A stretch of 63,312 nucleotides of DNA, filler included. It is 4 parts of 4 records of this genome, joined end to end, with 100 filler letters (N's around TTAATTAATTAA, not from the genome) between each part and the next. Parts side by side here need not be neighbours in the genome. Positions count along the whole stretch, not along the records: positions 1 to 31,604 come from SRR2962707_2780; 3 more parts are not named here. One strand, 5' to 3'. This document shows positions 2,627-33,841 of the stretch, piece after piece. The notes below the pieces were generated by a model, which was not told where the DNA came from, ran no database searches, and saw nothing but the letters and a program-made list of their open reading frames with translations. The translations under genes and the position numbers were made by a program. How positions within the stretch are numbered: the first letter of the stretch is position 1; every line of letters begins with the position of its first letter.

Positions 2627-2628
2627 AT

Positions 2629-3552: not shown

Positions 3553-3586
3553 GCGGACATACCTTGAATTTGGGAATGGAAAGGGG

Positions 3587-3612
3587 GGTGCCCCACGTTC
3601 ACGCGGGGCACC
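3587..3612 (-). terminator. Stem-loop downstream of the SBP gene (terminator or mRNA stabiliser)
   Basis: Inverted repeat GGTGCCCC...GGGGCACC just after the stop codon. Confidence 0.6.
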
Positions 3613-3624
3613 GATTTGGTCAGC

Positions 3625-4953: not shown

Positions 4954-4986
4954 ATTTTCCTCCCAAAAACTGAAAATTATTGTGTC

Positions 4987-6075
4987 TTAAAGGGCCACTT
5001 CGGTCTTTCGGTCGAAGAGATGGATGCCCTCTGGATCGATTGCAAAACGCAGTTTTCCGTCACGATCAATCGGAATTGTGGACTTCAGTTCGACCTCAAC
5101 TTTTTGGCCTCCGCAATCACACAACAAAACCGTTTGCGCGCCGATGTATTCAGAAACGACAATACCCAAAGATAGGGATCGATCTTCGGCAGCGTCTACA
5201 TCGTAGACCAGATCAGATGGCCGAATACCAAGGGTGACTTCCCGCGCTGGATGCGCAGCGGCGACCTTGGCTTTGCTTTCTGATAGCAAGACACAAAAGC
5301 CCTGACCTTCGACATACGTTTTGTCTTTCTTGACGACGATCTCACCATCCAGAAAGTTCATCGGCGGCATGCCTAGAAAACCGGCCACAAATTTGTTGAC
5401 GGGGTGTTTGAACAGTTGTTCAGGGCTGCCCTGCTGCTGGATGTATCCACCATTCATCACCACAATCCGGTCCGCCAAAGTCATGGCTTCGATCTGATCG
5501 TGGGTGACGTAGATCATGTTTTTCTGAACCCGCTGGCTCATCAGGGCCAGCTCCGCCCGCATCTGCCCGCGCAATTTGGCATCAAGGTTGGACAGTGGTT
5601 CGTCAAACAAGAACGTACCGGCATCGCGGGTGAGAGCACGACCCATTGCAACGCGCTGGCGTTGGCCACCGGACAATTCCCCTGGCTTTCGATCCAAAAA
5701 CGGGGTCAAGCCAAGTGTCTCGGCAACAACACCAACTTTTTCGTCAATCTCGGCCTGTGGCGTGCGCTTCAGGCGCAGCGCAAAAGACATGTTCTTTGCT
5801 ACGTTCATATGCGGATAAAGCGCATAATCCTGAAAAACCATCGCCAGATCACGCGCTTTTGGCTCCAGATGGCTGACCGGATTCCCGTCTACGTAAATCT
5901 CGCCTTTGGTAACGCTTTCCAGACCCGCGATCATACGCAGCGTCGTTGATTTACCGCAACCGGATGGGCCGACAAAAACTGTAAATTCGTTTTCTTCCAT
6001 CTCAAGATCGATGCCATGCAGCACCTCAACGGATCCGTACTGTTTGACCAAACCTTCTAAGACAATCTTTGGCAT
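4987..6075 (-). CDS. Sugar ABC transporter ATP-binding protein (MalK/UgpC-like)
   Basis: GPSGCGKST, LSGGQRQRVAMGR and DEPLSNLD; GGAGG RBS before the ATG at 6075. Confidence 0.97.
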   Translation of the reverse strand: MPKIVLEGLVKQYGSVEVLHGIDLEMEENEFTVFVGPSGCGKSTTLRMIAGLESVTKGEIYVDGNPVSHLEPKARDLAMVFQDYALYPHMNVAKNMSFALRLKRTPQAEIDEKVGVVAETLGLTPFLDRKPGELSGGQRQRVAMGRALTRDAGTFLFDEPLSNLDAKLRGQMRAELALMSQRVQKNMIYVTHDQIEAMTLADRIVVMNGGYIQQQGSPEQLFKHPVNKFVAGFLGMPPMNFLDGEIVVKKDKTYVEGQGFCVLLSESKAKVAAAHPAREVTLGIRPSDLVYDVDAAEDRSLSLGIVVSEYIGAQTVLLCDCGGQKVEVELKSTIPIDRDGKLRFAIDPEGIHLFDRKTEVAL

Positions 6076-6099
6076 CTTTCCTCCCACCGAATTATTCGG

Positions 6100-6145
6100 T
6101 TATTGTTACCGGTCACATTAACACAAATGTGACCGGTAACAATAA
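6100..6145. promoter_or_regulatory. Twin GntR/LacI-type operators forming a perfect 20-bp inverted repeat
   Basis: TTATTGTTACCGGTCACATT-N6-AATGTGACCGGTAACAATAA; each arm resembles the LacI-family GntR box TGTTACCGGTAACA. Confidence 0.85.
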
Positions 6146-6190: not shown

Positions 6191-7219
6191 TCACGAACTT
6201 TCGCGAAATATAGGTTCGGCGGGAACTTCAATATGATTCGCAGACTCATGAGTGCCCTCGCCTGCCAGAAGACGTGCTATCAGGCGTCCCGTTTCGCGTC
6301 CGATTGTCAAAGGTTCCACAATAACCGTCGAGATCGACGGAGAGGCGAACCGCGAAACTTCGAAATTTCCGAAGCCCGCAACCGCGATCTGATCGGGGAT
6401 ATTGATGCCGTTGCTCAGTAAATAGCTTTGAACCCCAAATGCAGCCGCATCTGAAACGCAAAAAATGCAATCTGTATCCGGCCATGCCTTCAATATTCTG
6501 GCACCTGCAAGCGCACCGGATTCAATGGACAATGGAGGCGCGCCATATTGCACAACCCGCGCAGTTTCCAACCCTGCTTGTTCCATTGCGGCCCTATAAC
6601 CAGACCGCCGCGCCGCACCACGGGTCCATGTATCGGCTTCCTCACCAAGAAAAGTGATTTCTCGATACCCTTTGGCAATCAGCTTTTGGGTCATACGAAA
6701 GGCAGCGTCATAGTTTGAAAACCCAACTGTGTGTTCAATTGGGCGATCCGGCTTTTCCCAAATTTCGACAATTGGAATGTCGACACTGGCCAGCAGTTCA
6801 TAGGTTCGTTCTGTATGTCCGTCATAAGACAGAACCAATGCCTCAGGGCGCCGTCTGAGCAGGGATTGGACCACCTGTTCTTCGCGGTCCGCGGAATAAT
6901 CCGTGTGCCCCAGCAGGATTTGCAGATCAATCTTTTCCAGTTCTTCCGTTAATCCCTGCACAGTCAACGCAAAGTGCAGGTTGTTCAACGATGGCAAAAG
7001 GGCCGCGACAAAGCCTGATTTTTTGGTTGTCAGGCTACCGGCCATCTGATCCGGGACATAATTCAGGTCTTTGACGATCTTTAAGATATGGTCGCGTGTC
7101 TTGTCAGTAATTGAGCTGTTTTTCTTGAGCGCACGCGACACGGTCATGCGCGACACGCCTGCTGCTTTGGCGACGTCGCGCATTGTTACTGGTGTTTTGG
7201 CGTTTCCGTTTGTTGGCAC
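6191..7219 (-). CDS. LacI-family (GntR/IdnR-like) transcriptional repressor
   Basis: HTH TMRDVAKAAGVSRMTVSRAL plus a periplasmic-binding-type effector domain. Confidence 0.95.
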   Translation of the reverse strand: MPTNGNAKTPVTMRDVAKAAGVSRMTVSRALKKNSSITDKTRDHILKIVKDLNYVPDQMAGSLTTKKSGFVAALLPSLNNLHFALTVQGLTEELEKIDLQILLGHTDYSADREEQVVQSLLRRRPEALVLSYDGHTERTYELLASVDIPIVEIWEKPDRPIEHTVGFSNYDAAFRMTQKLIAKGYREITFLGEEADTWTRGAARRSGYRAAMEQAGLETARVVQYGAPPLSIESGALAGARILKAWPDTDCIFCVSDAAAFGVQSYLLSNGINIPDQIAVAGFGNFEVSRFASPSISTVIVEPLTIGRETGRLIARLLAGEGTHESANHIEVPAEPIFRESS

Positions 7220-7278: not shown

Positions 7279-8784
7279 TTAGACAGTTTGCAATTCAGGA
7301 CGCAAAAGCGCTGTTGGGAAGTCTTGGTAAGAGACCGGACGCAACCAGCGCACGATGGCCAACGTGCCCACCGATGTTGCCCGCGCGTCTGTGCTCGCAG
7401 GATATGGACCGCCATGCATCATGGCAGAGCAAACCTCAACGCCTGTGGGGAAACCGTTACAAAGCAGGCGCCCAGCCTTCTCTTCCAACACCTCGGCAAG
7501 ATCACGTGCGAGATCAATGTCGGCATCTTCAAGCTGTAGTGTGGCGGTCAATTGCCCCTCAAGGGCTTCTGCAACCGCCATCATCTGTTCCGTATCTTCG
7601 CATTCCACCATAATACCCGCGGCACCGAATACCTCTTGCTGCAATATCGGGGTCGCCATCCATGTTGCTGCGTCAATCTTAAAGACCGCAGGCAGCGCGT
7701 GACGCTGTTTGTCCGAGCGTCCACAAGACGAGATTTCTTGCATCAGATCGGCAAATGTACGCACCCCTTTTTGATAGGCATCATGAATACCGTCGGTCAA
7801 CATCTTCTGCTCTGGCGCGTCTTCTAGAGCGGTCAGGGCGGCATCAGTAAATGTCTCAAGACCCGCGCCTTTAACCCCAACGATAACCCCCGGATTCGTA
7901 CAGAACTGCCCTGCCCCCGTAATCAAGGAACTTGCCCAACCAGTGCCGATAGCAGCTGCGCGTGCCTCAACCGCATGGGGTAACAGAAATACAGGGTTCA
8001 CCGAACCCAGCTCACCATAAAACGGAATTGGATGTGGACGTGCATGACAAAGATCATACAACGCTTTGCCTCCGCCAAATGATCCTGTAAACCCGACCGC
8101 GCGAATTTCTGGATGTTTCACCAATGCAGTACCGATTACCCTGCCCGGCCCTTGCAACAACTGGAATGTGCCGCTGGGCATGCCACATATTTCCATAGCT
8201 TTTGCAACCGCTTGGCCCACCAATTCGGCGGTTCCTGCATGCGCCTCGTGGCCTTTTACAATCACTGGACAACCAGCCGCAAGCGCGCTTGCCGAGTCGC
8301 CACCAGCCGTTGAAAAGGCCAGTGGGAAATTGGATGCCCCGAACACCACGACAGGCCCAATCGGGCGATGCGTCAGCCGCAGATCAGCGCGCGGCAAGGG
8401 TGAGCGATCCGGCAATGCCACGTCAATACGGGTATCAAGGTGTTTGTCATCCTCTATAAGGTCGGCAAACATGCACAACTGACCGGTCGTGCGGCCTCGC
8501 TCGCCATTCAGGCGTGCTTCGGGAAGACCGGTTTCAGCGCTGCCCGTTTTGGTGATCTCGTCGCCCAACACGTCGATTTGCTCAGCTATGGTGCGCAAGA
8601 ACGTGGCGCGGTCGGCGCGCGACATACCGGCATAGGCCCTGAAGTCACGGCGCGCGGCGACACACGCCGCATCAACTTGCGCGTCTGTTGCTTGCGCAAA
8701 CGCCATACCGTCCAGATCATCGCTTGCCCGCGTTTCGTCTGACCCGAGCCATTTTCCGTCAATTAGATTGTTACCTGTCAACAT
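7279..8784 (-). CDS. Alpha-ketoglutaric semialdehyde dehydrogenase (NADP+ ALDH)
   Basis: FGASNFPLAFSTAGGD, ELGSVNP, GQFCTNPG and HGGPYPA are KGSADH-type signatures. Confidence 0.9.
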   Translation of the reverse strand: MLTGNNLIDGKWLGSDETRASDDLDGMAFAQATDAQVDAACVAARRDFRAYAGMSRADRATFLRTIAEQIDVLGDEITKTGSAETGLPEARLNGERGRTTGQLCMFADLIEDDKHLDTRIDVALPDRSPLPRADLRLTHRPIGPVVVFGASNFPLAFSTAGGDSASALAAGCPVIVKGHEAHAGTAELVGQAVAKAMEICGMPSGTFQLLQGPGRVIGTALVKHPEIRAVGFTGSFGGGKALYDLCHARPHPIPFYGELGSVNPVFLLPHAVEARAAAIGTGWASSLITGAGQFCTNPGVIVGVKGAGLETFTDAALTALEDAPEQKMLTDGIHDAYQKGVRTFADLMQEISSCGRSDKQRHALPAVFKIDAATWMATPILQQEVFGAAGIMVECEDTEQMMAVAEALEGQLTATLQLEDADIDLARDLAEVLEEKAGRLLCNGFPTGVEVCSAMMHGGPYPASTDARATSVGTLAIVRWLRPVSYQDFPTALLRPELQTV

Positions 8785-8787
8785 TGG

Positions 8788-9702
8788 CTATTTTCCCCAG
8801 TTCAGTACAATTGGATCAAGTGGTTTCAGAAGGCTCATCAACCTTGAACGAATGTCCGGATGCAGCGGTTCAATCGGGTGGCGGCAGAATTCGGACTTGA
8901 TCACACCCCCTTCGACCATCGCCGCCTTGCAGGATCGCCAACCACATTGACGGTTCTCATGGTTGATCGCCATCGCGACCCGCCCATACGCAGCCGTGGC
9001 ACCGTCCACATCACCGGCGTGATACAGGTCAATCACCGGTTTGATCTGGTCAACGATCATGCCCGATGTCATCGCACCCGTGGCACCTGCATCCAGATCA
9101 GCCAGCAACGTGATCGCCTCTTCGCCGTCAAAGGGGCCCTCAATCGCGGCACCCCCTTCGGCAATCAACGTGCGCAATTTATTCGCAGCCATCGGACATT
9201 CGATCTTGAAAAGTTTTACCATTTCAATCTCGTTCGCCATTTTAATCAGCAGCGGCACAGGCAGATCAACGCCGGACAAGGGCGCATCCTGAACCATAAT
9301 CGGAATACCAACCTTGCCCACTGCCTGAAACTGCTCGAACGTCTGCTGTGCGGTCCCCTTAAGGAGTGCGCCGTGATAGGGCGGCATCAACATGACGATG
9401 TCGGCCCCCAGATCCTTCGAGAACTGCGCCCGTTCAACTGCGATCTTGGTCGCGTAATGGCTGATTGTCACAATCACCGGAACGCGGCCCGCAATATGCT
9501 CAATACACAGGCGGGTCAGAACTTCGCGCTCAGTATCGGAAATCAAGAATTGTTCCGAGAAGTTGGCAAGGATACAGATACCATCCGCGCCTTGATCGAT
9601 CAGACAATCCAACACCCTTTCCATCCCATCTGTATCAAGCGTTCCATCAGGATTGAACGGCGTTGGTGCGACGGGCCAGATGCCTCTGTAAGCAAAGCTC
9701 AT
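8788..9702 (-). CDS. DHDPS-family 2-keto-3-deoxy-L-pentonate (KDA/KDL) dehydratase, AraD-like
   Basis: CILANFSEQF, MPPYHGA, FKIE, DGEEAITLLADL and HENRQ match the L-KDA dehydratase subfamily as recalled. Confidence 0.88.
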   Translation of the reverse strand: MSFAYRGIWPVAPTPFNPDGTLDTDGMERVLDCLIDQGADGICILANFSEQFLISDTEREVLTRLCIEHIAGRVPVIVTISHYATKIAVERAQFSKDLGADIVMLMPPYHGALLKGTAQQTFEQFQAVGKVGIPIMVQDAPLSGVDLPVPLLIKMANEIEMVKLFKIECPMAANKLRTLIAEGGAAIEGPFDGEEAITLLADLDAGATGAMTSGMIVDQIKPVIDLYHAGDVDGATAAYGRVAMAINHENRQCGWRSCKAAMVEGGVIKSEFCRHPIEPLHPDIRSRLMSLLKPLDPIVLNWGK

Positions 9703-9707
9703 GTCAG

Positions 9708-10883
9708 TTACTCCACGATGTCAAAGTTGTGCAAATGTTTGTCCGAAATTGTGATGCCCAGTCCCGGAATGTTGTCATCCAGTTGAAGGTATCCATCTAC
9801 CGCATCGGGATCACCCTCAAAGATGTAATAGAACAGCTCGTTGCCGACCTCGACATCATGCACAGGGAAATACTCACTGATTGGGCAGTTAACGTTCGCC
9901 ATCGTCAGATGATAATTGTGCATTTGACCTGCGTGCGGAATGACCGGAATTTGATAGGCTTCGGCAATCGCGTTGATCTTTTGTGCAGCAGTAATTCCAC
10001 CCACGCGGTTGGTGTCATATTGCAGAACACTGACAGCCTTTTTCTCCAGCAACTGCTGGCAACCCATAATCGAGAATTCATGCTCCCCGCCTGAAATTGG
10101 CACAATGCCCATCGCGTTCAGCTCGGCGTAGCCATTCACATCATCGGCAATCACCGGCTCTTCCAGCCAACGTGGCTCGTATTTGGCCAGTTTGGGCAAC
10201 ATCCGTTTGGCGTAATCAAGATTCCAGCCCATGTAGCACTCAAGCATCAGATCAACGTCATAGCCCAACACTTCACGCAGCGCTTCGACTCGCTTGAGGT
10301 TTTCGCGCATGCCTCTCATGCCGTCTTTGGGGCCAAAGCCAAAGCGAGTCTTGAACCCCTGATAGCCGTGTTTTTGCGCCTCTTCCGCTTCCGCTTGCAT
10401 CGATTCAATCGAACCGGAATACAGCTTGGAATAATAGGCCGGAATTTTCTCTTTTGTGCGACCGCCCAACAGTTTGAACACAGGCTTGTTGATCAGTTTG
10501 CCCATCAAGTCCCAGATCGCAATATCAATGGCAGACATCGCTGTCATACCAATGCCCTTGCGGCCCCATGCGTGACTGCGGCGGTACATTTTGTCCCAGA
10601 TATAGGCATAGTCAAATGGGTCTTCGCCAATGACCATCGGAGCGTACCAGTCATCGATCGCCTTTTTCACAACCGTGGGTGCCAGTGCTGCGTTCCCGAT
10701 GCCGATGGTGCCATCATTAGTCTCGACCTCGACGGTCAGCCATTGGTGAAAGCGGAACGATGCCATTGCATCACCACGGTCCCACAGCGTATCTGACGCA
10801 TTGGTGCAAAAATTGCCGGACGGCGGCACGGTTGGGCCTTTCCAGTTCCAGACACGGGTGCGAATTGATTTGATTTTGGTCAT
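9708..10883 (-). CDS. Enolase-superfamily acid-sugar dehydratase (RhmD family), probably L-lyxonate dehydratase
   Basis: [20 protein letters not shown] and DTNRVGGIT; adjacent to KDA dehydratase and KGSADH as in lyxonate operons. Confidence 0.8.
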
Positions 10884-10945
10884 AGATCTCTCTCCCTTAG
10901 GCTAGGCCCGTGCCCGCCAATATTGGTGATGTAGCGCAGGTTTTT

Positions 10946-11956
10946 TTAACTTGCGGCGCGGTCTGCGCTATGTGTTTTGGCCATGCGCACAAGCAAATCA
11001 AAAGCTTGGCGTGTGGCGCTTACATTGGCCTTGTTCTGGCCTGCGATATCGAACGCCGTCCCGTGCGCGGGCGTTGCCACCGGAATGGGCAGCCCGCCAG
11101 CAACCGTCACGCCACGCTCAAATCCCAGCAGCTTAATCGCGATCTGGCCCTGATCGTGGTACATCGTGACAACTGCATCCACTTCGCCGCGTTTGGCTTT
11201 CAAAAACACGGTATCCGAAGGCCATGGCCCCGTCACATCCATCTGTTTGGCTTGTGCTTTAGCAATAGCGGGTTCCAGAACATCGATCTCTTCGCGACCA
11301 AACTTGCCATTATCTCCTGCGTGCGGGTTCAAAGCAGCAACAGCAATCGACGGGCGCAATTTACCTGCGCGAAGCAAGGTGTCGTTGGCCAGATTGACGG
11401 CCCGCAAAATACCCTCTTGGGTGATATTAGCCGCTACATCTCTTAATCCGATATGACTGGTGACGCGAGTCGTCATCAGATCGTCCAGCACGTTGATTTC
11501 GCTGTGATAGCCCCCAAAGCCAAGGTAGCGCGCCATGTACTTGTGCTCGTCCTCGGCGTTCAGACCCGCGCTGGTCATTGCGGCCTTGTTAAAGGGGGCG
11601 AAAAGCACGCCGTCAACCAGACCTGCCTGCGCCAAATCCATCGCCTTATCAAGGCAACGCAAGGATGTACGACCACCGGCTTCAGTCACTGTCGCGACTT
11701 GAACTTCTGACGGCGTGATGGTTTCCATCTCAAGATGGTGAAACCCTTCTTGGGTCGCGATGTCCGTTTCGGAAATCCGGTTCAGCGTAACCGGCAAATC
11801 CGCCTGCCCTGCTCCTTGCGCCCATAGATGGCTGTCGCCCACCAGAACGATGTTCGCCGCCTCCATGACGCCGGTATCGTTTAGCAGTTTTGCGACCAGT
11901 TCTGGGCCAATCCCCGAAGGATCTCCCGGCACAATTGCGATGCGTGGCTTGCTCAT
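10946..11956 (-). CDS. PdxA-family protein, probable catabolic decarboxylase (2-carboxy-L-lyxonate decarboxylase-like)
   Basis: GDPSGIGPE, LNPHAG, MYHDQG and HGTAFDIAG; ATGA overlap with the upstream gene. Family is certain; function is inferred from context. Confidence 0.8.
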   Translation of the reverse strand: MSKPRIAIVPGDPSGIGPELVAKLLNDTGVMEAANIVLVGDSHLWAQGAGQADLPVTLNRISETDIATQEGFHHLEMETITPSEVQVATVTEAGGRTSLRCLDKAMDLAQAGLVDGVLFAPFNKAAMTSAGLNAEDEHKYMARYLGFGGYHSEINVLDDLMTTRVTSHIGLRDVAANITQEGILRAVNLANDTLLRAGKLRPSIAVAALNPHAGDNGKFGREEIDVLEPAIAKAQAKQMDVTGPWPSDTVFLKAKRGEVDAVVTMYHDQGQIAIKLLGFERGVTVAGGLPIPVATPAHGTAFDIAGQNKANVSATRQAFDLLVRMAKTHSADRAAS

Positions 11957-12915
11957 GACAACCCCTCCCAATGTTTAGAAAATCCATCCGGCAAGATGAC
12001 CATAACGTCAGGCTCTTTGCCGGTCTCAAAGGTCCGAACCACCTCAAATGTATCAAGACTAAAGCGCTGAACCTGTTCACAATCAATTGCGATATAGGCA
12101 AAGTTTTGCTCTGCATCCAGACACAACGCCAGCGGATTGGCGGGCGTGTCTTGACGGTGCAATTCTTCCCCCGTTGTTTCGTCAAAAACGCTGAAGGAAC
12201 CCCCGTGGTGGTTCATCGTCACCAAGCGATTGCGCTTGGTATCGTGATAGATACGGCAAGGGTCAGTTGGTGTCGGGAAAGACCGAACCACTTCCAGTGA
12301 CTGCATATCAATCAGAGTGACCGTGTTCGATATCCGGTTTGTTGTGTAAAGTATCTTTTCGTCCACACGCATCGCCCTGCCCTCAGGCTTTTCACCTGTT
12401 TTGATCGAGATAGGCGCGATCGCCGTATCGTAGGGCTTGAACATCGTCACATCGCCAGATGTGAGGTTCATGGAATACGCGGTGTCGCCATCAGCGGTCA
12501 GTGCAAAGAGATGCGATTTGGTTCCCCCGGTGGGCGTAATGTGATCCCAACCTTGGTCAAAGGCGCGTGGGTTTTCTTTGACCAGCAAATGCGCAGTCCA
12601 CTCAGAAAGGACGTACAAGCGGCCCTTGGCATCTAACGCAATCCCATGCGGGCGGGCGTGTTCGCCCAAATCATAGGTGTGCGCGATCTCTTGCTTGCGG
12701 ATGTCTATGACGATGACGGACCGTCCGTCAGTGCCCTCAATGCTAGAGTTCTGCACGCCATAGTGACCAACATAGGCATATTCAAAGGCATCATCCACGA
12801 CAAATTCGTGGGGGTAGTCAGGCAGTTGGGTACGGCCCTGACGTGTGCCTGTCTCAATATCGTACCAGCTCACGCAGTGGCTGCATTTTTCGATCAGCAT
12901 CATAGATTGAGCCAA
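11953..12915 (-). CDS. WD40/YVTN-like beta-propeller protein (candidate 2,3-diketo-L-gulonate mutase)
   Basis: Repeated blades (PHEFVVD, PHGIALD, TGEKPEG, TGKEPD); no signal peptide; GAAGGGGA RBS before the TTG at 12915. Confidence 0.7.
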   Translation of the reverse strand: MAQSMMLIEKCSHCVSWYDIETGTRQGRTQLPDYPHEFVVDDAFEYAYVGHYGVQNSSIEGTDGRSVIVIDIRKQEIAHTYDLGEHARPHGIALDAKGRLYVLSEWTAHLLVKENPRAFDQGWDHITPTGGTKSHLFALTADGDTAYSMNLTSGDVTMFKPYDTAIAPISIKTGEKPEGRAMRVDEKILYTTNRISNTVTLIDMQSLEVVRSFPTPTDPCRIYHDTKRNRLVTMNHHGGSFSVFDETTGEELHRQDTPANPLALCLDAEQNFAYIAIDCEQVQRFSLDTFEVVRTFETGKEPDVMVILPDGFSKHWEGLS

Positions 12916-12939
12916 AGGAATCCCCTTCAATAATAAAAT

Positions 12940-12953
12940 TGTGACCGGTCACA
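12940..12953. promoter_or_regulatory. GntR/LacI-type operator
   Basis: Perfect palindrome TGTGACCGGTCACA upstream of the enzyme operon, one base different from the boxes at 6100-6145. Confidence 0.85.
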
Positions 12954-13022: not shown

Positions 13023-13052
13023 TGCATAGCCCAGTCGCGACCGGGCTATGCA
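13023..13052 (-). terminator. Stem-loop downstream of the LuxP-like SBP gene
   Basis: 10-bp inverted repeat TGCATAGCCC...GGGCTATGCA. Confidence 0.65.
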
Positions 13053-13058: not shown

Positions 13059-14198
13059 TTAGCGCTTGAGTGCGCCGACACCTGAGAAGCGGAACGCTTC
13101 TTGTTCGAGCGCGTTCAACTCATCCGCGGACATTTGGTCATGCGCGACAGTGATCCGTCCCAAGAATACCAGTGGCAATTCATCTCCACGGGCTTCCAAA
13201 TCAGCCTTAATTGCTTCGGCTGTTGCAGCACCCACATCATCACCCATCCGCATCGGCGTGGCATCCAGGTCACCACGGCGGATTGCGTCCAGCTCAAGGC
13301 CAGTACCGCCCCAACCTGTAGAGAAGATGTCTTTAGTCTTCTCAGCAGCGACTTGCGCTTCGACACTGCCCATAGCCATCGCTGTGTTGGCATTATGGAT
13401 GATCGTGGCTTCAGGATAGGCTTGGAGAATCAGGCTCGTGCCTTCGTATCCACCTTCGGTCTGGTATTCGCCGTAGTGTTCGTAAGCGACGCTCCAGTTG
13501 CCCTTTTCCATAACGCAGTCTTTGAAATCACCCGAACGTTGGTTGTCGGTGATGCCTGGAATGCCTCGGTTCATCGCCATGGTGACGTCATTGCCCAAAC
13601 GGCCAAGCATGTAGTCACACATGGTCAAGGCGCCTGCGGCTGAAGAGAAGTCAAACCAAGCTGCAGGCTGTGTTGCCAAATACTTGAGTGGCGTGTGGAA
13701 AGCCCAAACATAGGTGCTAAAGCCGTCGTTTCCGGATAGCTTTTCAATGTTATCGCCTTGAATGGCGAGCTCAGATGGTCCGAAGATCACATAGTCGTAC
13801 AGATCTGCGTCTTGCTCGACTTGGTTGGCGTATGTCGCTTGCAAAGAATGCTCGACCTGACGGCTCGCAAACTCGGTTGTCTCATACGCGATACCCAACT
13901 GCTCAAGCCGTTTGGTCATCGCAAGATAGTTGCGGGCCCAAAAGTCTGAGGTATCAGCAGATGGGTAGATCAGAGCAATCTGAACTGGATTATCTAGCGA
14001 ACCGGTGAACGGTACGGCTTCTGCACCAACCGCAGCTTGCAACGCTTCAAGTTTGCCATCTGCGTTAACTTCGCCTGGCAGCCAGTGATCGCGATCCGCA
14101 ATCCCAGCCATTTCTTTGAGTGGCAAATGGCCATCTGCCATCGCCATACCAGCGCAGAGCGCTGTTGTTGTAAGTAAAGTTGTCGTAAAGGCTTTCAT
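13059..14198 (-). CDS. LuxP-like periplasmic binding protein of an ABC transporter
   Basis: Signal peptide; YPSADTSDFWARN, GWGGTGLELDAIRRGDLDATPMRMGDDVGAATAEAIKADLE and AFRFS align with recalled Vibrio LuxP segments. Confidence 0.82.
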   Translation of the reverse strand: MKAFTTTLLTTTALCAGMAMADGHLPLKEMAGIADRDHWLPGEVNADGKLEALQAAVGAEAVPFTGSLDNPVQIALIYPSADTSDFWARNYLAMTKRLEQLGIAYETTEFASRQVEHSLQATYANQVEQDADLYDYVIFGPSELAIQGDNIEKLSGNDGFSTYVWAFHTPLKYLATQPAAWFDFSSAAGALTMCDYMLGRLGNDVTMAMNRGIPGITDNQRSGDFKDCVMEKGNWSVAYEHYGEYQTEGGYEGTSLILQAYPEATIIHNANTAMAMGSVEAQVAAEKTKDIFSTGWGGTGLELDAIRRGDLDATPMRMGDDVGAATAEAIKADLEARGDELPLVFLGRITVAHDQMSADELNALEQEAFRFSGVGALKR

Positions 14199-14281
14199 CG
14201 TGGTTCCTCCCTGTTGATGAAATGGTGGTGTCTATAAGGTGCGCCGAGGATCCTACCTCCCGGCGAACCACTTTTTATCTC

Positions 14282-15409
14282 TTAACCGCTGGGTGTTGGG
14301 TCAACTGCGAACAGCGTACCCAAGACCAGCAGCAGGGCCAAAAGGCCAAGGATGCCTAGAACAAATCGAAGCATTTTTTTGCCTTCAGGTGTGCTCAAAC
14401 CGGACAGCAATCCTTTGGCACCATCGCGGTCTTTCTTTTGCATCCAAGTGTAGAGCGCGACCGAACTCACGATGACGACGCCAGAGGCGACGGATTGCCA
14501 AAAGAACTCGATACGCAAAGTGACCAGCGCGTTGATCATCATCGACAGCAAAAGCACGCCGGCAAATGATCCAATGATGGACGCCCGTCCGCCAAATAGT
14601 GATGTGCCACCCACAACCACGGCCGCGATAACGTGAAGGTTGAAATAGGGGGCTGACGTTGCCTGGACGGCGTTCAATTTGCCGGTCAACATAAGGCCAG
14701 CAAGTGCTGCGGTAGCACCCATTAGAACATACGCGTAGATCTTGTGTCTGTTAACGGAAATCCCGGTCATTTCAGCGGCTTCAGGGTTGGACCCTATGGC
14801 AACCGTGTAGCGGCCAAAGTAGGTCTTTTTCAGCAGCCAATATCCACCGATCATTGTCGCGATCCCGATGACGACAGGAATTGGTAGAAATCCGGGGATT
14901 TGGCCACGGCCAATGTCCGTCAAAAGATCTGGGAACCTTGCCAGAACTAGCCCTTTGGCAAGAACCAAAGCAAAGCCACGATAAACAAGGTCCATCGCCA
15001 AAGTACCAATCAAGTCAGGCACCTTCAGCTTTGTAATAACCAAGCCGTTGATCAGACCCATTGTAGCCCCCAACATGATCGCGATCGGAATAGCGATCCA
15101 GGCAGGAAAGCCATATTGCTTGATCAAAAAGGCCATCACGATAGCACTGAGGGCCGCAATGGAGCCGATCGACAAATCAATGCCGCGCTGCGTGATGACA
15201 AAAGTCATCGCCATTGCCATTGGCATATATAGCGCCGCGTCGATCAAGATCAGCTTCATATTGCTTATGCGGAAATAGCGAGCGGGTTCGACCGCGCCCA
15301 TGAACAAAAGGATGGCGAGGATCATGACCATGGGGCCAATAATTGCCAGATAAGGCTCGATCCGTTCGCCAAAGCTGCGCGGCGGAAGGTTTGTTTTTGT
15401 AGTTGTCAT
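14282..15409 (-). CDS. Sugar ABC transporter permease (RbsC/CUT2 family) with C-terminal extension
   Basis: GIDLSIGS, AIGSNPEAAEMTGI and IAAVVVGGTSLFGG. Confidence 0.93.
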   Translation of the reverse strand: MTTTKTNLPPRSFGERIEPYLAIIGPMVMILAILLFMGAVEPARYFRISNMKLILIDAALYMPMAMAMTFVITQRGIDLSIGSIAALSAIVMAFLIKQYGFPAWIAIPIAIMLGATMGLINGLVITKLKVPDLIGTLAMDLVYRGFALVLAKGLVLARFPDLLTDIGRGQIPGFLPIPVVIGIATMIGGYWLLKKTYFGRYTVAIGSNPEAAEMTGISVNRHKIYAYVLMGATAALAGLMLTGKLNAVQATSAPYFNLHVIAAVVVGGTSLFGGRASIIGSFAGVLLLSMMINALVTLRIEFFWQSVASGVVIVSSVALYTWMQKKDRDGAKGLLSGLSTPEGKKMLRFVLGILGLLALLLVLGTLFAVDPTPSG

Positions 15410-15419
15410 TGTATTTCCC

Positions 15420-16178
15420 TCAGGCTGCTTCTTCAGCGCCAACGATCAGACCAAGCACTTCTTGCTGGCTGCTTTCAGACGTCTTAACGACACCGGCACA
15501 TTGGCCCCGCCGTTGAACATGGACGCGATCAGAAACCTGAAAGACGTCATCCAGCGAGTGACTGATCAGGATAACGGCCAGCCCCTGCGCCTTGAGCGCC
15601 TCGATCAATTTCAAAGTACGTGCTGTTTCTTGTGGGCCGAGGGCGGCCGTTGGCTCGTCCATGACCAGCACCCGAAGCCCTTCGGTATAGACCGCGCGGG
15701 CAATGGCCACGGCCTGGCGTTGTCCGCCAGACAGGCTTTCGGTCGCGGCATCCATGGAACGAAGTGTCACGCCAAGGCGTTCAAACAACACACGTTCGGT
15801 TTCGGATCGCATCTTTTTGTTGTCGAGGACCGGAATGCCAAAAAAGTTCTTGGTCAGCTCATTGCCCAAAAACATATTGGCGGCTGGATCAAGATGATCA
15901 GCCAAAGCAAGCGTTTGATAAACCGCATCGATACCTTTTGCGATGGCATCGGAGTGGTTGGTCATCTCCAGTGTTTCACCCCCAACCATGATCTGGCCTT
16001 CGGATGGTTGATAAACGCCTGTCAAAATTTTGATCAGTGTGGACTTGCCCGCACCGTTATCCCCAACAATTGCGAGAACTTCGCCAGCGTTTGCATCAAG
16101 GTCGACCTCGGATAGCGCGGTAACCCCACCAAATCGTTTTGAAATGTTGCGCATCTTGACCAATGGTTCAGACGACAT
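15420..16178 (-). CDS. Sugar ABC transporter ATP-binding protein (single NBD, CUT2)
   Basis: GDNGAGKST, LSGGQRQAVAIAR and MDEPTAALG. Confidence 0.95.
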   Translation of the reverse strand: MSSEPLVKMRNISKRFGGVTALSEVDLDANAGEVLAIVGDNGAGKSTLIKILTGVYQPSEGQIMVGGETLEMTNHSDAIAKGIDAVYQTLALADHLDPAANMFLGNELTKNFFGIPVLDNKKMRSETERVLFERLGVTLRSMDAATESLSGGQRQAVAIARAVYTEGLRVLVMDEPTAALGPQETARTLKLIEALKAQGLAVILISHSLDDVFQVSDRVHVQRRGQCAGVVKTSESSQQEVLGLIVGAEEAA

Positions 16179-16305: not shown

Positions 16306-17355
16306 TTATTTGCCCCAAATCGCACTATAAGCAGCGCGATATGGTGAATCTGGATCAAACGAATTGCTGTCGCCGAGTTTGGCTAGCCCTTCTTGGGTCA
16401 CCAAGGCCGGTGAGGTGATGTAGCCCGAACAAGCTTCCCCAGAAATCGCTCGGTTCAACTCATCCACAAGCTGCCAACCCTGAAGATTCAAGGGCTCGGC
16501 CACTGTGATTGCTTGGTACTGGGCTGTACGGATCCGCTGGAACGCGGCCTCTGAGCCGTCGCCGGCCGATCCGGCAAGTGGTGCGCCGTCACCTTTGATC
16601 CCAGCGGCGGCGAGGGCAGGGCCCATAAAGTCAAAATACAGGTCATTGATCGCCAAAGCGTGAGTCCAGCTGCTGCCATACTTTTGCAAAAGGCTGGTTG
16701 TCAGTGGCCCCATCCGGCTGGATGTATCTGCAATCGGTGTGTCGACATATTCAAGAACTGTGCCGCCCATCGCTTCGATGGTTTCTTTGATCCGGTCCGC
16801 TTTATCGATCGCAATCTGGTAAGTGGAGTCCGTGAAAATCACCGCGCCAACATTGTCGCCGCCGTCTTCTATGGCCCATTTTGCTGCCACTTCAGAAACG
16901 GTCATCGCGTTTGTAGACACGTTGGCGAAAATGCCACCCGGCGCGTCGCAACCAATTTTGGGGCCAGAGTGCCAAGAAACCATCGGGATGCCAGCGGTCG
17001 ATACGCCTTCCAGCGCAGCTTGCTGTTCTACTGCATCAAAGCCATTGATGATGATGCCATCTGGCTGCAACGCCATGGCCTGACCAATCGCGCCAGTGCG
17101 GCCTTGGATTGAACCCGCGCCGTCCAATACACGAACTTCCCATCCGATCACTGCCGCTGCTTCTTCGATGCCTGTCGTCACACCAAGAATGCCGCCGTTT
17201 TTGAGATCACCCGCCAGGATAACAATTGATTTGCCTTCGGCAGCAGCTGGACCTGATGAGGGTCCGTCAAACGCTGTTTCGGCGAACACTGATGCACCCG
17301 CGCTGACAAGTAACGTCGTCGCAAGAAGCACCTTCATTGTTGTTCGTCGTTGCAT
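16306..17355 (-). CDS. Sugar ABC transporter substrate-binding protein (Peripla_BP_4/RbsB-like)
   Basis: Signal peptide; IGWEVRVLDG, QPDGIIING and LAINDLYF; GGAGG RBS. Confidence 0.9.
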   Translation of the reverse strand: MQRRTTMKVLLATTLLVSAGASVFAETAFDGPSSGPAAAEGKSIVILAGDLKNGGILGVTTGIEEAAAVIGWEVRVLDGAGSIQGRTGAIGQAMALQPDGIIINGFDAVEQQAALEGVSTAGIPMVSWHSGPKIGCDAPGGIFANVSTNAMTVSEVAAKWAIEDGGDNVGAVIFTDSTYQIAIDKADRIKETIEAMGGTVLEYVDTPIADTSSRMGPLTTSLLQKYGSSWTHALAINDLYFDFMGPALAAAGIKGDGAPLAGSAGDGSEAAFQRIRTAQYQAITVAEPLNLQGWQLVDELNRAISGEACSGYITSPALVTQEGLAKLGDSNSFDPDSPYRAAYSAIWGK

Positions 17356-17384
17356 AATATTCCTCCCTATATGCATGTCGTGAA

Positions 17385-18407
17385 TTATGATGATTTCGCG
17401 CCCTTGTTGCGCTGCGCGTAGCCTGCGATCCCGATGGCGATCAGCAAGGTTACGCCATTAAACATTGGCTCAACCCAGAACGATCCGCCGAATTGCTGGA
17501 TGCCCGAGATACCCACCGCAAGCACCGCAACACCGATGATCGTTCCAAAAACGTTGACCCGACCGGGTTTGATGGTGGTCGACCCCAAGAAGGCACCAAC
17601 CAATGCAGGTAGTAGAAACTCTAGGCCCACGCTGGCTTGTCCGATGCGTAGTTTGGATGCCAAGATGACCCCGGCAAGAGCCGTCAAAAAGCCCGAGCTC
17701 ATGAACGCGCCGATGACGTATTTGCGTGTTGGGATGCCGCTCAATTGGGCGGCCTTTTGGTTCGCGCCAATTCCGTAAAGATAGCGACCCATCGGGGTGT
17801 ATTCCAATACGATCCACATGATGATGGTGATGGCCGCCACATAAAACCCAGTGATGGGGAGCCCAAATACAAACGTTCCGTTGATTGCATAAAAGCCGTC
17901 TGGAAGCAGGCCAACCATTTGGCGCCCCCCCGTGTGCCAAAGCGCCAGGGCATAAAGCACAGTGCCGGTGCCCAGTGTCGCGATAAAGCTGTCGATCTGG
18001 GCCACTTCAACCAGAAGGCCGTTCAAGAAACCGGTGAACAAACCCAACGTCAAGACAATACCAACCGCAATTGGCCACGGAATTCCGTAAATTGTCTGCA
18101 AGGAGATTGCGAGGATGTGCCATAAAACAATGCCATACCCGACTGTTAGGTCAATCCGCCCCGCGGCCATCGGGATCATCGCACCCAACGACAGCAACGC
18201 AATGATGGCTTTGTCAGAAATGATCGCGCGCAGGTTCAAAATCGTTGGGAATGTGTTGGGCAACAAGATTGAGAATAAAAGGATCAGCACCCCCGTGATG
18301 ATCACCAAGCCATAGACCGGCAACAGGCGCATCATGCGACCGGCCAAGGTTAGCTTGCTGAGCTCTGCCCGCGTCGGTTCAAGGGCATTAGACTTAAGAG
18401 ATTGCAT
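17385..18407 (-). CDS. Sugar ABC transporter permease (RbsC/CUT2 family)
   Basis: IDLTVG, FIATLG and GANQKAAQLSGI. Confidence 0.93.
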   Translation of the reverse strand: MQSLKSNALEPTRAELSKLTLAGRMMRLLPVYGLVIITGVLILLFSILLPNTFPTILNLRAIISDKAIIALLSLGAMIPMAAGRIDLTVGYGIVLWHILAISLQTIYGIPWPIAVGIVLTLGLFTGFLNGLLVEVAQIDSFIATLGTGTVLYALALWHTGGRQMVGLLPDGFYAINGTFVFGLPITGFYVAAITIIMWIVLEYTPMGRYLYGIGANQKAAQLSGIPTRKYVIGAFMSSGFLTALAGVILASKLRIGQASVGLEFLLPALVGAFLGSTTIKPGRVNVFGTIIGVAVLAVGISGIQQFGGSFWVEPMFNGVTLLIAIGIAGYAQRNKGAKSS

Positions 18408-19920
18408 GGGGGTTTTCCTTCGCCAATCCATGATTGCCTGCCGAGGCGGCTTGGATCAGGTTTTCTGATGTTAGTCGGGTGCCTTTGAGTTCGCCAACGA
18501 TCTGGCCTTGGCTAAACACAATCGCGCGATGGCAGATGGCCGCTACTTCTTCGAAATCTGTAGAGACGATTATTATTGCAACGCCAGCTTCCAAAGCCTT
18601 GTTCAATAACGTGTAAATTTCTGCCTTTGCGCCAACGTCTACGCCCGCTGTTGGATCCTCGCAAATTAACAATTTACGGCCTGTCGCAAGCCAGCGCCCC
18701 ATCACCACCTTTTGTTGGTTTCCACCAGACAAGGCTTCAATTGCGAGAGTTGGATCATTCGGGCTAAGGGCGATGTCCTTGCCAATTTGAACCGCGGCAT
18801 TTGTTTCGTCGCGTCCCCACATAAAGGAAAAGGCCTTGCGGCCAACGGCTGCCGGATTAAGAAACGTGTTTTCGCGAATAGTGAGGTTCATAGCAACTGC
18901 TTCGCCGGTACGGTCACGGGCAACCAGGCCGATACCAGCATCCAAAGCTGACTGCGGTGAACTTAGGTCAGGTATTGTACCGTCCAGAACAATGGTGCCG
19001 CGAAATGGATCAACACCGAAAAGGGCACGCGATACGTCCTCATGACCTGCACCGCGCAATCCAACCAGCCCAACAATTTCATTGCGGTACAAGTCAAAGT
19101 CGACGGGTCCAGCTTCGCCTACATAAAGATCCTGAACACTCAATGTTTTTTCGCCGCGCGCTTCGGTCGGCTTGTGCACTTCGCGTGTCGCACGACCGAC
19201 AATCATGTTGACCAATTCCTCGGGCGAGGTGTGGTCGATGGCGCGCACACCAACAACCTGGCCATCGCGTAAAACGGCAACGCGGTCCGCAATGTCAAAA
19301 ATCTCGTCCAACCGATGTGAAACGTAGATCATCCCAACGCCTTGTTCGCGCAAAGGGCGCAGGGCCTTGAACAATCGATCCACTTCGTCCGCGGGCAATG
19401 AAGCCGTTGGTTCATCCAAAACAAGAAAGTCACAATCAACGGCCAAGGCGCGGGCAATCGCGACAAGCGATTTTTCCGTACGTGACAAATCTTGAACACG
19501 AGTTGTTGGATCAAACGTGCAGTCGACCTTGGCCAAAGCCTGCCGTGCGAATTCGTTGACTTTGCTCCATTTGATCAGCCCGTTTTTGCGCGAATATCCC
19601 AAAGCCAGAGCAATGTTCTCGGCGACGGTCATCCATTCAATCAAGCCCAGATCTTGGTGAATAAACGCTACTTTTTGACGTTCTCCAAAGCCGCCGGGGC
19701 GATGTGCATAGGGTTGGCCGTCTATTAGAACCTGGCCGGCATCAGGTGCGTGAATGCCTCCGAGGACTTTGATGAGGGTCGATTTTCCGGCACCGTTTTC
19801 GCCCAGCAAAGCAACAATCTTGCCGCGCTCAACAGCGAGCGATACCGACTTAAGAGCGTAGGTGCCCCCAAAGTGCTTTTCGACTGAATCAAAAAATAAG
19901 CCGCCTTGCAAACATTGCAC
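18394..19920 (-). CDS. Sugar ABC transporter ATP-binding protein (two NBDs, RbsA/MglA-like)
   Basis: GENGAGKST, LDEPTASL and LSGGNQQKV; start placed at GTG 19920 after a GAGGGG RBS. Confidence 0.95.
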   Translation of the reverse strand: MQCLQGGLFFDSVEKHFGGTYALKSVSLAVERGKIVALLGENGAGKSTLIKVLGGIHAPDAGQVLIDGQPYAHRPGGFGERQKVAFIHQDLGLIEWMTVAENIALALGYSRKNGLIKWSKVNEFARQALAKVDCTFDPTTRVQDLSRTEKSLVAIARALAVDCDFLVLDEPTASLPADEVDRLFKALRPLREQGVGMIYVSHRLDEIFDIADRVAVLRDGQVVGVRAIDHTSPEELVNMIVGRATREVHKPTEARGEKTLSVQDLYVGEAGPVDFDLYRNEIVGLVGLRGAGHEDVSRALFGVDPFRGTIVLDGTIPDLSSPQSALDAGIGLVARDRTGEAVAMNLTIRENTFLNPAAVGRKAFSFMWGRDETNAAVQIGKDIALSPNDPTLAIEALSGGNQQKVVMGRWLATGRKLLICEDPTAGVDVGAKAEIYTLLNKALEAGVAIIIVSTDFEEVAAICHRAIVFSQGQIVGELKGTRLTSENLIQAASAGNHGLAKENPHAIS

Positions 19921-19977
19921 CAGAATCCCCCCTCGTTCGAGTTTTTGACACTCAACTGCCTCTCCCAAGACTGTTGA

Positions 19978-20046
19978 GTTACCCGTAACGTATTGCTATC
20001 ATTGTGGTGGAACCCGTCGCTGTCAACACAAAATGTTACGGGTAAC
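19978..20046. promoter_or_regulatory. Pair of GntR/LacI-type operators in the divergent promoter region
   Basis: GTTACCCGTAAC (19978-19989) and its reverse complement GTTACGGGTAAC (20035-20046). Confidence 0.8.
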
Positions 20047-20069: not shown

Positions 20070-21080
20070 ATTTCTATTAAGAACAATCGAGTAGGCGTAA
20101 ATGATGTGGCGAAAGCCGCAGGCGTTTCCAAGATGACAGTGAGTCGCGTTCTGCGTGACGAAGGCGGCTTTTCAGAAACAACGCGTGTCAAAGTGATGAC
20201 GCAAATCGAACGATTAGGGTATCTGCCGAATCGACTCGCCGCCGTCTTTGCAGGCGACACACGATCTACCTTTGTCGGGGTCGCTATTCCTGAGTTGGCG
20301 AACGAAGTATTCGGTTTGATTTTGGAGGGGGTCGATCGAAAGCTCGGCGCTTTCTCTCATCAAGCTGTTCTTGGAGTGACCCAGCACGCGCTTGATCAAG
20401 AAGAGAAATGGATTGAACGGGTCCTATCTTGGCAGCCCGCTGGCCTTATTCTGACAGGCCGCGCGCATTCTCAAAAATCGCAATCCATGTTGAGGTCTGC
20501 AGGGATACCGATCGTTGAGATTTGGGATCTCAATTCTTCTCCGATGGATATGTGTGTCGGGCTGGATCACTATGATAGCGGGTATGATATGGGTCGCCAT
20601 TTGCTGTCCAAGGGCTACCGTAAATTTGGCTATGTCGGCACATCTCATATTTCGGCAAACGCCGCATCTGCACGAATGGACGGGTTCGCAAAGGCCGTGA
20701 CGGATTCTGGTGGGGAAGTGACCAAGCAGTTGTGCCTACACGATGTCCCCGGTTTTTATCCCGGATATTATGGCACAGAGCAGCTTTTGGCGTCGGCACC
20801 AAATGTCGAAGCGGTGTTTTATCAAAACGACAACATGGCAGTTGGCGGCATGCAATATTGCCAAGCGCGCGGCATGGCGACGCCTGACGATATCGCAATT
20901 GCGGGTTGGGGCGATTTGCCGGTTCTTTCTATCCAACCTTACCGCATGACGACTGTCCGCATTCCACATCTCAAACTTGGTCAAACCGCGGCAGAGGTCC
21001 TTCTTGACGCGTTGCAGGGCAGTGCAACCAAAAACGTTCACGATATCGGATATTTGTTAGTGCCCGGTTCGACCACCTAA
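20070..21080 (+). CDS. LacI-family (GntR-like) transcriptional repressor
   Basis: HTH VGVNDVAKAAGVSKMTVSRVL. The first canonical start (GTG 20106) cuts helix 1, so an ATT start at 20070 after GGAGA is proposed. Confidence 0.92.
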   Translation: MSIKNNRVGVNDVAKAAGVSKMTVSRVLRDEGGFSETTRVKVMTQIERLGYLPNRLAAVFAGDTRSTFVGVAIPELANEVFGLILEGVDRKLGAFSHQAVLGVTQHALDQEEKWIERVLSWQPAGLILTGRAHSQKSQSMLRSAGIPIVEIWDLNSSPMDMCVGLDHYDSGYDMGRHLLSKGYRKFGYVGTSHISANAASARMDGFAKAVTDSGGEVTKQLCLHDVPGFYPGYYGTEQLLASAPNVEAVFYQNDNMAVGGMQYCQARGMATPDDIAIAGWGDLPVLSIQPYRMTTVRIPHLKLGQTAAEVLLDALQGSATKNVHDIGYLLVPGSTT

Positions 21081-23158: not shown

Positions 23159-23170
23159 TGCTGGCGCTTA

Positions 23171-23182
23171 GCCTACCCTGCC
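23171..23182 (+). other. Candidate oriT nic site (IncP/T-border type)
   Basis: GCCTACCCTG/CC resembles the RP4 nic CCTATCCTG/CC; it lies immediately upstream of mobC, in the polarity that transfers the relaxase last. Confidence 0.55.
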
Positions 23183-23394
23183 TTAGTCTTCTTCTCAAAC
23201 CTAAGTGTTGCCCCGGGCAACATTCCGCCTTGCAGAAAGGTCGCGCGGCGGACAGGCAAGCGCGTCTATATTCTAAGACAAATGGGGCTGAGCCAGGACA
23301 AGAAGGTGAGCAGCAGCCGGAATGGACGGCGCAACAAATTAGGCGCGCTCCAAAGCGTAAAGCAGAGTGCATTCACCATCATTGCCTTTCCTTT

Positions 23395-24333: not shown

Positions 24334-24344
24334 GTGACTGCCTC

Positions 24345-26313: not shown

Positions 26314-26343
26314 GATCTCATTCCTTTCTGTTTGCTGCTGTTC

Positions 26344-26901: not shown

Positions 26902-26932
26902 AGTTTCGTTCCAATATGATTGGGGGATGGAT

Positions 26933-26956: not shown

Positions 26957-26961
26957 TTGGC

Positions 26962-33826: not shown

Positions 33827-33841
33827 GAGCGCTGATACGGC

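Follow-up and report, generated by a model that had tools for sequence, protein, structure and literature searches.

A LuxP-family binding protein encoded with a CUT2-type ABC importer in marine roseobacters: a candidate uptake system for an acidic sugar

The three-gene importer and its binding protein

We analyzed a 63,312-nucleotide stretch of DNA (the window; four records joined end to end, positions 1 to 31,604 being SRR2962707_2780) in which three adjoining genes encode a transporter of the ATP-binding cassette (ABC) type and a periplasmic binding protein related to LuxP, a receptor for autoinducer-2 (AI-2). An earlier reading of the DNA, referred to here as the original prediction, had described an ATPase, a permease, and a substrate-binding protein in a row. 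This was borne out by three open reading frames (ORFs) lying head to tail on the minus strand, and the peptides quoted for the binding protein were each present in the translated 379-aa product. The genes of the unit, termed ABC2 below, were as follows.

15420..16178, minus strand: ABC ATPase with a single nucleotide-binding domain, 252 aa (Pfam ABC_tran, 101.9 bits)
14282..15442, minus strand: ABC permease, AraH/RbsC-like (Pfam BPD_transp_2, 124.6 bits)
13059..14198, minus strand: LuxP-family periplasmic binding protein, 379 aa, with a Sec signal peptide (Peripla_BP_4, 50.3 bits; cut-off, 35.1)

A Peripla_BP_4 protein, a BPD_transp_2 permease, and an ABC ATPase encoded in one operon constitute a CUT2 importer. 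The three-gene unit is an ABC importer of this ribose/xylose-like type that depends on a binding protein, and its capture protein belongs to the LuxP family. Since the unit held one single-domain ATPase gene and one permease gene, the importer presumably contains two copies of each protein. The permease probably starts at an ATG at 15409, giving 375 aa, as in the annotations of Ruegeria pomeroyi and Phaeobacter inhibens. The nearest NCBIfam models were AraH and RbsC for the permease and the first halves of YtfR, XylG, AlsA, and RbsA for the ATPase, and neither protein reached a curated cut-off. The ATPase covered positions 1–237 of 492 in its best model, YtfR, and did not have the fused two-domain CUT2 form of approximately 500 aa. 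Scores on the Lsr models (145 bits for the permease on LsrC and 146.7 bits for the ATPase on LsrA) were far under the cut-offs, and the binding protein reached 33.5 bits with the RbsB model, for which the cut-off is 337. A GC-rich hairpin at 13027–13048 was found 3′ of the binding-protein gene, in the 128-nt gap between this gene and the next one, which encodes a beta-propeller protein.

The binding protein was compared with known structures by sequence and by fold. In a phmmer search against 177,635 distinct PDB sequences, the four top matches were LuxP entries (E = 1.1e-36, 129.9 bits, query residues 51–372), whereas the first match other than LuxP, a ribose-binding protein of Thermotoga maritima, had an E-value of 4.3e-7; no LsrB chain was named among the 34 matches at E ≤ 1. 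An AlphaFold model built from 54 sequences (predicted local distance difference test score [pLDDT], 92.7) was used as a Foldseek query, and ranks 1–8 were LuxP chains with E-values of 2.3e-30 to 1e-28 and TM-scores of 0.71–0.78 by query and 0.80–0.86 by target. The best match other than LuxP had an E-value of 1.9e-18, and ribose-binding proteins followed from there on. The binding protein is a genuine member of the LuxP family, with a likeness far beyond chance, and it is LuxP-like rather than an ordinary RbsB or LsrB protein, as had been predicted.

The family of LuxP-like proteins is a compact one: a full HMMER scan of 1.84 billion representative proteins returned only 285 relatives of the binding protein at E ≤ 1e-3, and 135 when the threshold was set to E ≤ 1e-10. 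When one genome per species was searched with a 3-sequence alignment as the query, only close orthologs were returned. For the survey of gene neighborhoods we took the best 80 of 422 stretches encoding a relative. The proteins of all 80 loci were 80–87% identical, and the hosts were marine Rhodobacterales together with Hoeflea, Roseibium, and Lentilitoribacter (some Hyphomicrobiales); a family member at E ≤ 1e-20 was present in 36 of 401 sampled Rhodobacterales genomes. Genes for the single-domain ATPase and the permease adjoined the binding-protein gene in 77 of the 80 loci, and the three remaining loci (L008, L032, and L079) ended less than 1 kb upstream of that gene. A second CUT2 system (ABC1, with its own binding protein, SBP1) and a divergent LacI gene lay directly upstream in 62–69 of the 80 loci, as in the window. 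The LuxP-type system occurred without ABC1 in six full-length loci; therefore, the three-gene unit is self-sufficient. In the L075 locus, from a Paracoccaceae metagenome-assembled genome, a further, incomplete copy of the genes for the permease and the binding protein (17577–19251, 77–80% identical to the window genes) lay approximately 6 kb downstream of the complete system.

The same layout was found in a plasmid collection on P. inhibens S4Sm p1 (89%), the R. pomeroyi DSS-3 megaplasmid (78%), and a Tateyamaria plasmid (81%). Relaxase, NikA/MobC-like, ParB/KorB, ParA, and DUF932 genes at 21379–27825 give the window a plasmid-like character and place the sugar-acid island on a mobilizable replicon. 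The host of the unit is a plasmid of a marine roseobacter-type bacterium.

The ligand pocket and relatives linked to signaling

Residue equivalences were taken from a MAFFT alignment with Vibrio campbellii LuxP (365 aa, L085). Six LuxP contacts were kept in the binding protein (Ser79 as S84, Trp82 as W87, Arg215 as R221, Thr266 as T272, Trp289 as W296, and Arg310 as R317) and three were altered (Gln77 to D82, Asn159 to A166, and Asp267 to A273). All nine residue calls of the original prediction were the same, and the alignment agreed with its statement that both borate-contacting arginines are retained, as R221 and R317. For a wider comparison we used 24 pocket-lining positions drawn from the available text of PMC6452917, PMC3794749, and PMC9920117, in which R215 and R310 of LuxP are named as interacting with the borate-like group and N159 as forming another hydrogen bond. 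Fifteen of the 24 positions were unlike LuxP, the further changes including Y81F, T134G, D136S, H180S, and F206G, and the pocket of the binding protein comprised D82, S84, F86, W87, A166, S186, R221, N271, T272, A273, W296, and R317. Across 82 ortholog rows, 23 of the 24 pocket positions were invariant, among them S84, W87, R221, T272, W296, and R317, compared with 198 of 316 for all columns. Two acidic residues of the LuxP pocket were lost (D136 to Ser and D267 to Ala) and one was gained (D82), while both arginines stayed. This charge pattern is compatible with an anionic ligand differing from AI-2.

The ligand first proposed for the importer was AI-2 (S-THMF-borate) or another furanosyl borate diester, taken up for eavesdropping or quenching. 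The LuxP fold, the two arginines, and the equivalents of Ser79, Trp82, Thr266, and Trp289 agree with such a ligand, and LuxP accepts other furanosyl borates, judging by the titles of PDB 4yr7 and 4yp9. However, the window protein lacked the complete set of AI-2 contacts: Gln77, Asn159, and Asp267 were replaced, and Tyr81, Thr134, Asp136, His180, and Phe206 were likewise altered. The gene context gave the same picture. At thresholds of at least 45% identity, at least 70% coverage, and E ≤ 1e-20, at which distant forms could be missed, lsrK, lsrG-like, luxQ, and GGDEF-EAL genes were found in none of the 80 loci, and LuxQ, LsrK, lsrG-like, and GGDEF-EAL queries gave no tblastn match in the whole window at E ≤ 1e-5. 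Pfam scans of 30 further window ORFs, a part of the total, revealed no histidine kinase. These results upheld the earlier statements that the window has neither a histidine kinase nor lsrK and that the partner of the protein is an ABC importer in place of LuxQ. In five carrier genomes luxS was absent, and lsrK did not exceed its cut-off in any of the five, a weak negative because the lsrK control gave no match in E. coli either. With three of nine contacts and most pocket positions differing, with these genes missing from the loci, and with a different clade occupying lsrK operons, we consider AI-2 a very unlikely ligand, and this part of the original prediction was not supported.

That different clade, 38% identical to the window protein, sits in Lsr-like operons of Roseicitreum antarcticum pRA01 and two other Rhodobacterales genomes at the following loci.

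L004:6172-16068: lsrK-linked locus of Roseicitreum antarcticum pRA01
L117:2002-11200: lsrK-linked locus
L118:6997-14826: lsrK-linked locus

The operon encodes LsrK (784 bits; equivalog cut-off, 528), an LsrR-like protein (291.6 bits) and an LsrG-like isomerase (109.6 bits), the latter two under their cut-offs, together with a permease, a LuxP-family binding protein, a single-domain ATPase, an RbsD/FucU gene product, and a class II aldolase. It was present in 2 of the 401 sampled Rhodobacterales genomes, in addition to the pRA01 plasmid. The link to lsrK suggests that ligands of the AI-2 type occur in the wider family, and this clade is a candidate LuxP-type AI-2 importer; the equivalents of Asn159 and His180 are kept in it but not in the window clade.

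We also considered whether the binding protein might serve mainly as a sensor for a membrane signaling protein encoded elsewhere, with transport as a secondary function. Four Vibrio sp. THAF replicons carry a 55–58% identical copy with no ABC genes nearby and with 23 of the 24 pocket positions the same, and the gene next to this copy is SBP1-like and overlaps a GGDEF-EAL gene; therefore, a protein of this type can serve signaling. In contrast, the transporter genes adjoined the binding-protein gene in all 77 loci for which upstream DNA was available, and neither a kinase, a GGDEF-EAL protein, nor a chemoreceptor partner was encoded by the scanned window ORFs. A chiefly sensory role of the binding protein is extremely improbable on this evidence.

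The second replicon of Vibrio sp. THAF191d illustrated the Vibrio arrangement (L003:8212-12990). Its copy was 58% identical with no ABC genes within 12 kb, and was divergent from the SBP1-like gene (39% identical to the window SBP1, E = 1e-79), which overlapped a gene for an 831-aa GGDEF-EAL protein. BLASTP detected no similarity between the N-terminal part of this protein and LuxQ. The two binding proteins of Vibrio sp. THAF seem to have been recruited to cyclic di-GMP signaling.

Neighboring genes, a shared motif, and the predicted ligand

The genes and sites around the importer were as follows.

20106..21080, plus strand: LacI1, divergent LacI-family regulator
19978..20046: two copies of the operator-like motif GTTAC(C/G)(C/G)GTAAC, at a spacing of 57 bp, in the gap separating LacI1 from the first transporter gene
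16306..19968, minus strand: ABC1, tandem CUT2 transporter (two-domain ATPase, 18394–19968; permease, 17385–18431; SBP1, 16306–17376)
12941..12952: motif copy GTGACCGGTCAC, 10 nt upstream of the beta-propeller gene start
7279..12930, minus strand: L-lyxonate-type catabolic operon of the following five genes
11953–12930, minus strand: beta-propeller protein, with weak YncE/lactonase-like matches
10946–11971, minus strand: PdxA-like dehydrogenase
9708–10883, minus strand: enolase-superfamily dehydratase
8788–9702, minus strand: L-2-keto-3-deoxyarabonate (L-KDA) dehydratase homolog of the DHDPS family
7279–8784, minus strand: aldehyde dehydrogenase
6191..7219, minus strand: LacI2, LacI-family regulator (NCBIfam GntR, 253.7 bits; IdnR, 217.7 bits; both under cut-off)
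6105..6140: two motif copies (starts 6105 and 6129), between LacI2 and the MalK-type ATPase gene
91..6087, minus strand: third transporter, of the CUT1 type, with a lactonase gene
4987–6087, minus strand: MalK-like ATPase
3625–4953, minus strand: SBP_bac_1 protein
2629–3552 and 1754–2626: two ORFs taken as CUT1 permeases by position (their L005 counterparts being BPD_transp_1 proteins)
91–1014, minus strand: SMP-30 lactonase

The ATPase of ABC1 held two ABC_tran stretches. Neither a PDB sequence relative (E ≤ 1e-3) nor an NCBIfam match was obtained for SBP1, its AlphaFold model from a shallow alignment was poor (pLDDT, 56.8), and its cluster matches in the Atlas were generic sugar-binding proteins only. 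The lactonase gene seemed to contain an in-frame stop, but this was an artifact of an over-long tblastn alignment. Elsewhere in the window, positions 32000–38000 had a G+C content of 0.63–0.65, compared with approximately 0.52–0.58 in the remainder, and carried genes of the metallo-beta-lactamase-fold, DUF4166, and histone-deacetylase families; this segment may have been separately acquired. A beta-oxidation-like cluster at 39301–49945 encoded an enoyl-CoA hydratase/3-hydroxyacyl-CoA dehydrogenase, a thiolase, an acyl-CoA dehydrogenase, and an aldehyde dehydrogenase, with a second enolase-superfamily gene (48551–49945) beside it.

The dehydratase of the five-gene operon was near-identical to PDB 3sqs, 3stp, and 3ssz (E = 1e-238 to 1e-244) and had KTR at 178–180 and His317. 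3STP is reportedly the L-lyxonate dehydratase (LyxD) of Labrenzia aggregata described by Ghasempur et al. in 2014. The DHDPS-family product matched the L-KDA dehydratase of Azospirillum brasilense (E = 2e-103). A dehydratase, an L-KDA dehydratase, and an aldehyde dehydrogenase convert L-lyxonate (or L-arabinonate) to 2-oxoglutarate in three steps. The beta-propeller gene overlapped the PdxA-like gene by 19 nt, and this pair preceded the lyxonate-type genes wherever these occurred; no DUF1537-type kinase was seen among the neighboring genes scanned near the pair.

Other acid-sugar genes adjoined the importer in the 80 loci. A GntK/IdnK-type gluconokinase gene was present in 24 loci, an IdnO-like reductase gene in 21, and an L-idonate-5-dehydrogenase-like (IdnD-like) gene in 9; GhrB-like, HIBADH-like, and SMP-30 lactonase genes were present in 10, 37, and 42, respectively. 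The gluconokinase passed its curated cut-off (179.9 vs 113.75 bits) and the other idonate-type neighbors did not. At least one of the five idonate-type genes (gluconokinase, IdnO-, IdnD-, GhrB-, and HIBADH-like) was found in 43 loci, at least three in 10, and all five in 4, while none was found in the window itself. In L077, ABC2 stood alone and was directly followed by a LacI gene and a complete idonate-like set.

The operons of the window shared a putative regulatory site. The 12-bp palindrome GT[GT]AC[CG][CG]GT[AC]AC occurred five times in the 63-kb window (starts 6105, 6129, 12941, 19978, and 20035), whereas 200 mononucleotide shuffles gave an expectation of 0.075 and never more than 1 copy, and all five copies lay in three promoter gaps, those of ABC1–ABC2, the lyxonate-type operon, and the CUT1 system. 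The motif was present in the gap between LacI1 and the ATPase gene of 45 of 58 full-length loci; in the ABC2-only loci L007, L018, and L050 it lay just upstream of the single-domain ATPase gene, and in R. pomeroyi it stood ahead of the transporter operon, the beta-propeller gene, and the lactonase gene. The best sigma-70-like site (20026–19998, minus strand) was beside the motif pair, and scans for promoters and terminators gave results not above those of shuffles. The five copies are probably LacI1/LacI2 operators of a single acid-sugar regulon. Since the motif stands ahead of all three operons, regulation, and not position alone, ties the LuxP-type importer to the catabolism of acid sugars and lactones.

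These results point, with about an even chance in our estimate, to an importer of an acidic sugar from the idonate, ketogluconate, or lyxonate group, the ligand most likely being an aldonate or keto-aldonate, compounds that are oxidation products of hexoses and ascorbate. In this scheme R221 and R317, whose equivalents hold borate in LuxP, would hold the anionic group of the ligand, while S84, W87, T272, and W296 would retain the contacts with the ring. The loaded binding protein would dock on the permease dimer, ATP hydrolysis would drive import, and product or substrate would lift LacI repression, so that the system would function in uptake and not in AI-2 sensing. The original prediction had offered, besides AI-2, an anionic or oxidized sugar feeding the adjacent operon; this part gained from the L-lyxonate-type pathway encoded next to the importer, whereas the AI-2 alternative was not supported.

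Several observations weigh against import of a sugar acid. The change of Gln77 to Asp brings an extra negative charge into the pocket, and the orientation of the arginines toward it is predicted from the alignment and the fold match only. The lyxonate-type operon adjoined the unit in only 8 of the 80 loci, and 37 had none of the five idonate-type genes in the fetched flanks; the evidence from the neighborhood is therefore partial. The operator motif was not found in L075, L077, or L081. Finally, in a table of PMC9038784, "Ribose" is counted as experimentally verified, and in the available text this is the sole published label that we found for the protein inferred to be the R. pomeroyi ortholog.

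This label makes ribose the main rival to an acidic sugar as the ligand, although still an unlikely one. The importer would then take up ribose, possibly as a ribose-borate ester formed in boron-rich seawater, with ABC1 and ABC2 serving as two ribose systems or for two forms. After LuxP, the nearest solved relatives of the binding protein were ribose-binding proteins. However, the neighbors are acid-sugar genes, the score on the RbsB model was low, and no ribokinase-family gene was found within approximately 14 kb in four carrier genomes or within approximately 20 kb on the R. pomeroyi megaplasmid. The 2017 study by Landa reportedly recorded an expression response that did not resolve which of the two systems binds ribose. 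In the text available, PMC9038784 lists R. pomeroyi SPOA0253, 0254, 0256, 0257, and 0258 under "Sugar / Ribose" and bases this label on Landa et al. 2017, and "ribose" has no occurrence in the main text of the mutant screen of Schroer et al. 2023 (PMC10130141). From gene order we infer that SPOA0253 is the LuxP-like protein of R. pomeroyi. Noon transcripts of the five listed genes were 21- to 56-fold higher in diatom co-culture, as given in the accessible part of Uchimiya et al. 2021 (PMC9038784). With an acidic sugar as the ligand, the system would point to an abundant uptake route for an algal-derived compound, its inferred R. pomeroyi copy being strongly expressed in co-culture with diatoms.

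In a further reading, which we regard as decidedly unlikely, the arginine pair of LuxP would be a borate clamp throughout the family, and the roseobacter transporter would import the borate ester of a cis-diol sugar or keto-acid, such as an ester of ribose or of an ascorbate-derived ketoaldonate formed spontaneously in boron-rich seawater. If so, it would be the first importer dedicated to a borated metabolite, Vibrio LuxP signaling and the GGDEF-EAL-linked copy of Vibrio sp. THAF would each derive from such importers, and the lsrK-linked sister clade would be an AI-2 importer of the LuxP type.

Relationship to LuxP and comparison with known systems

Ordinary ABC-linked Peripla_BP_4 proteins served as the root of a tree of 79 rows. 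Its canonical LuxP-type clade comprised 47 rows (SH-aLRT, 100), including the LuxQ-linked proteins of V. campbellii and V. fluvialis, and was nested within a grade of clades with a D/E-type pocket. The members of the D/E-type clades with visible context were all ABC-linked except the Vibrio sp. THAF copy. An approximately unbiased (AU) test rejected the D/E-type rows as one group (log-likelihood difference 73, p = 3.6e-6); it was made under LG+G4 with a 36-row subset of the tree (19 of the 23 D/E-type rows, 10 of the 47 canonical rows, and 7 outgroup rows), with the group set from the pocket table after the first tree had been seen. Because LuxP is nested among the D/E-type clades, the window clade is a surviving transport-linked cousin of LuxP and not its ancestor. 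The suggestion that the unit represents the transport ancestor of LuxP was therefore right about a transport-linked lineage, with which the tree agrees, and wrong in making the window clade the ancestor.

In the available text of PMC2561040 and PMC12268683, LuxP is treated as a signaling receptor found mainly in Vibrionales, with few signaling-linked homologs elsewhere, and we found no description of ABC-linked relatives of LuxP in the literature searched. The nearest relatives of LuxP are binding proteins of working ABC transporters, with 80–87% identity across many marine Rhodobacterales. This offers a testable origin of LuxP as a transport protein recruited into signaling, apparently more than once, and cautions against counting marine metagenome proteins annotated as "LuxP" (an IMG name) among the AI-2 receptors.

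Among characterized proteins, LuxP of V. harveyi/campbellii (PDB 1JX6, 2HJ9, 1ZHH, and 4YP9) was the best match of the window protein in both sequence and fold. The two share an N-terminal extension before the two-lobe core, the alignment starting from query residue 51, and a C-terminal AFR(F/Y)S motif. They are 27–30% identical and belong to separate clades, and whereas LuxP is paired with LuxQ, the window protein is encoded with an ABC permease and ATPase. The Lsr importer of AI-2 (LsrACDB, with LsrK, LsrR, LsrG, and LsrF) is an ABC importer of the same superfamily; in contrast, the window unit has no LsrB-type binding protein, and no lsrK, lsrR, lsrG, or lsrF gene is nearby.

The RbsABC/CUT2 importers of E. 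coli and T. maritima have the same parts as the window unit, in one operon under a LacI-type repressor. The RbsABC ATPase consists of two fused domains whereas that of the window has one, and the binding protein of the window has a LuxP-type pocket. Single-domain ATPases exist in the CUT2 family, for example FrcA of Sinorhizobium.

The catabolic genes resemble two known pathways. The L-lyxonate pathway of Pseudomonas aeruginosa PAO1 was reportedly described by Ghasempur et al. in 2014; like it, the window operon has a dehydratase followed by an L-KDA dehydratase homolog and an aldehyde dehydrogenase, and it has beta-propeller and PdxA-like genes in addition. The GntII/L-idonate system of E. 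coli consists of IdnT, IdnD, IdnO, IdnK, and IdnR, IdnT being a secondary carrier of the GntP family. Genes like those for IdnK, IdnO, IdnD, and GntR/IdnR adjoin the window-type transporter in other genomes, which suggests that this transporter may play the role of IdnT. Whereas uptake in E. coli proceeds via the IdnT carrier, uptake by the window-type system would be carried out by an ABC importer with a LuxP-fold binding protein.

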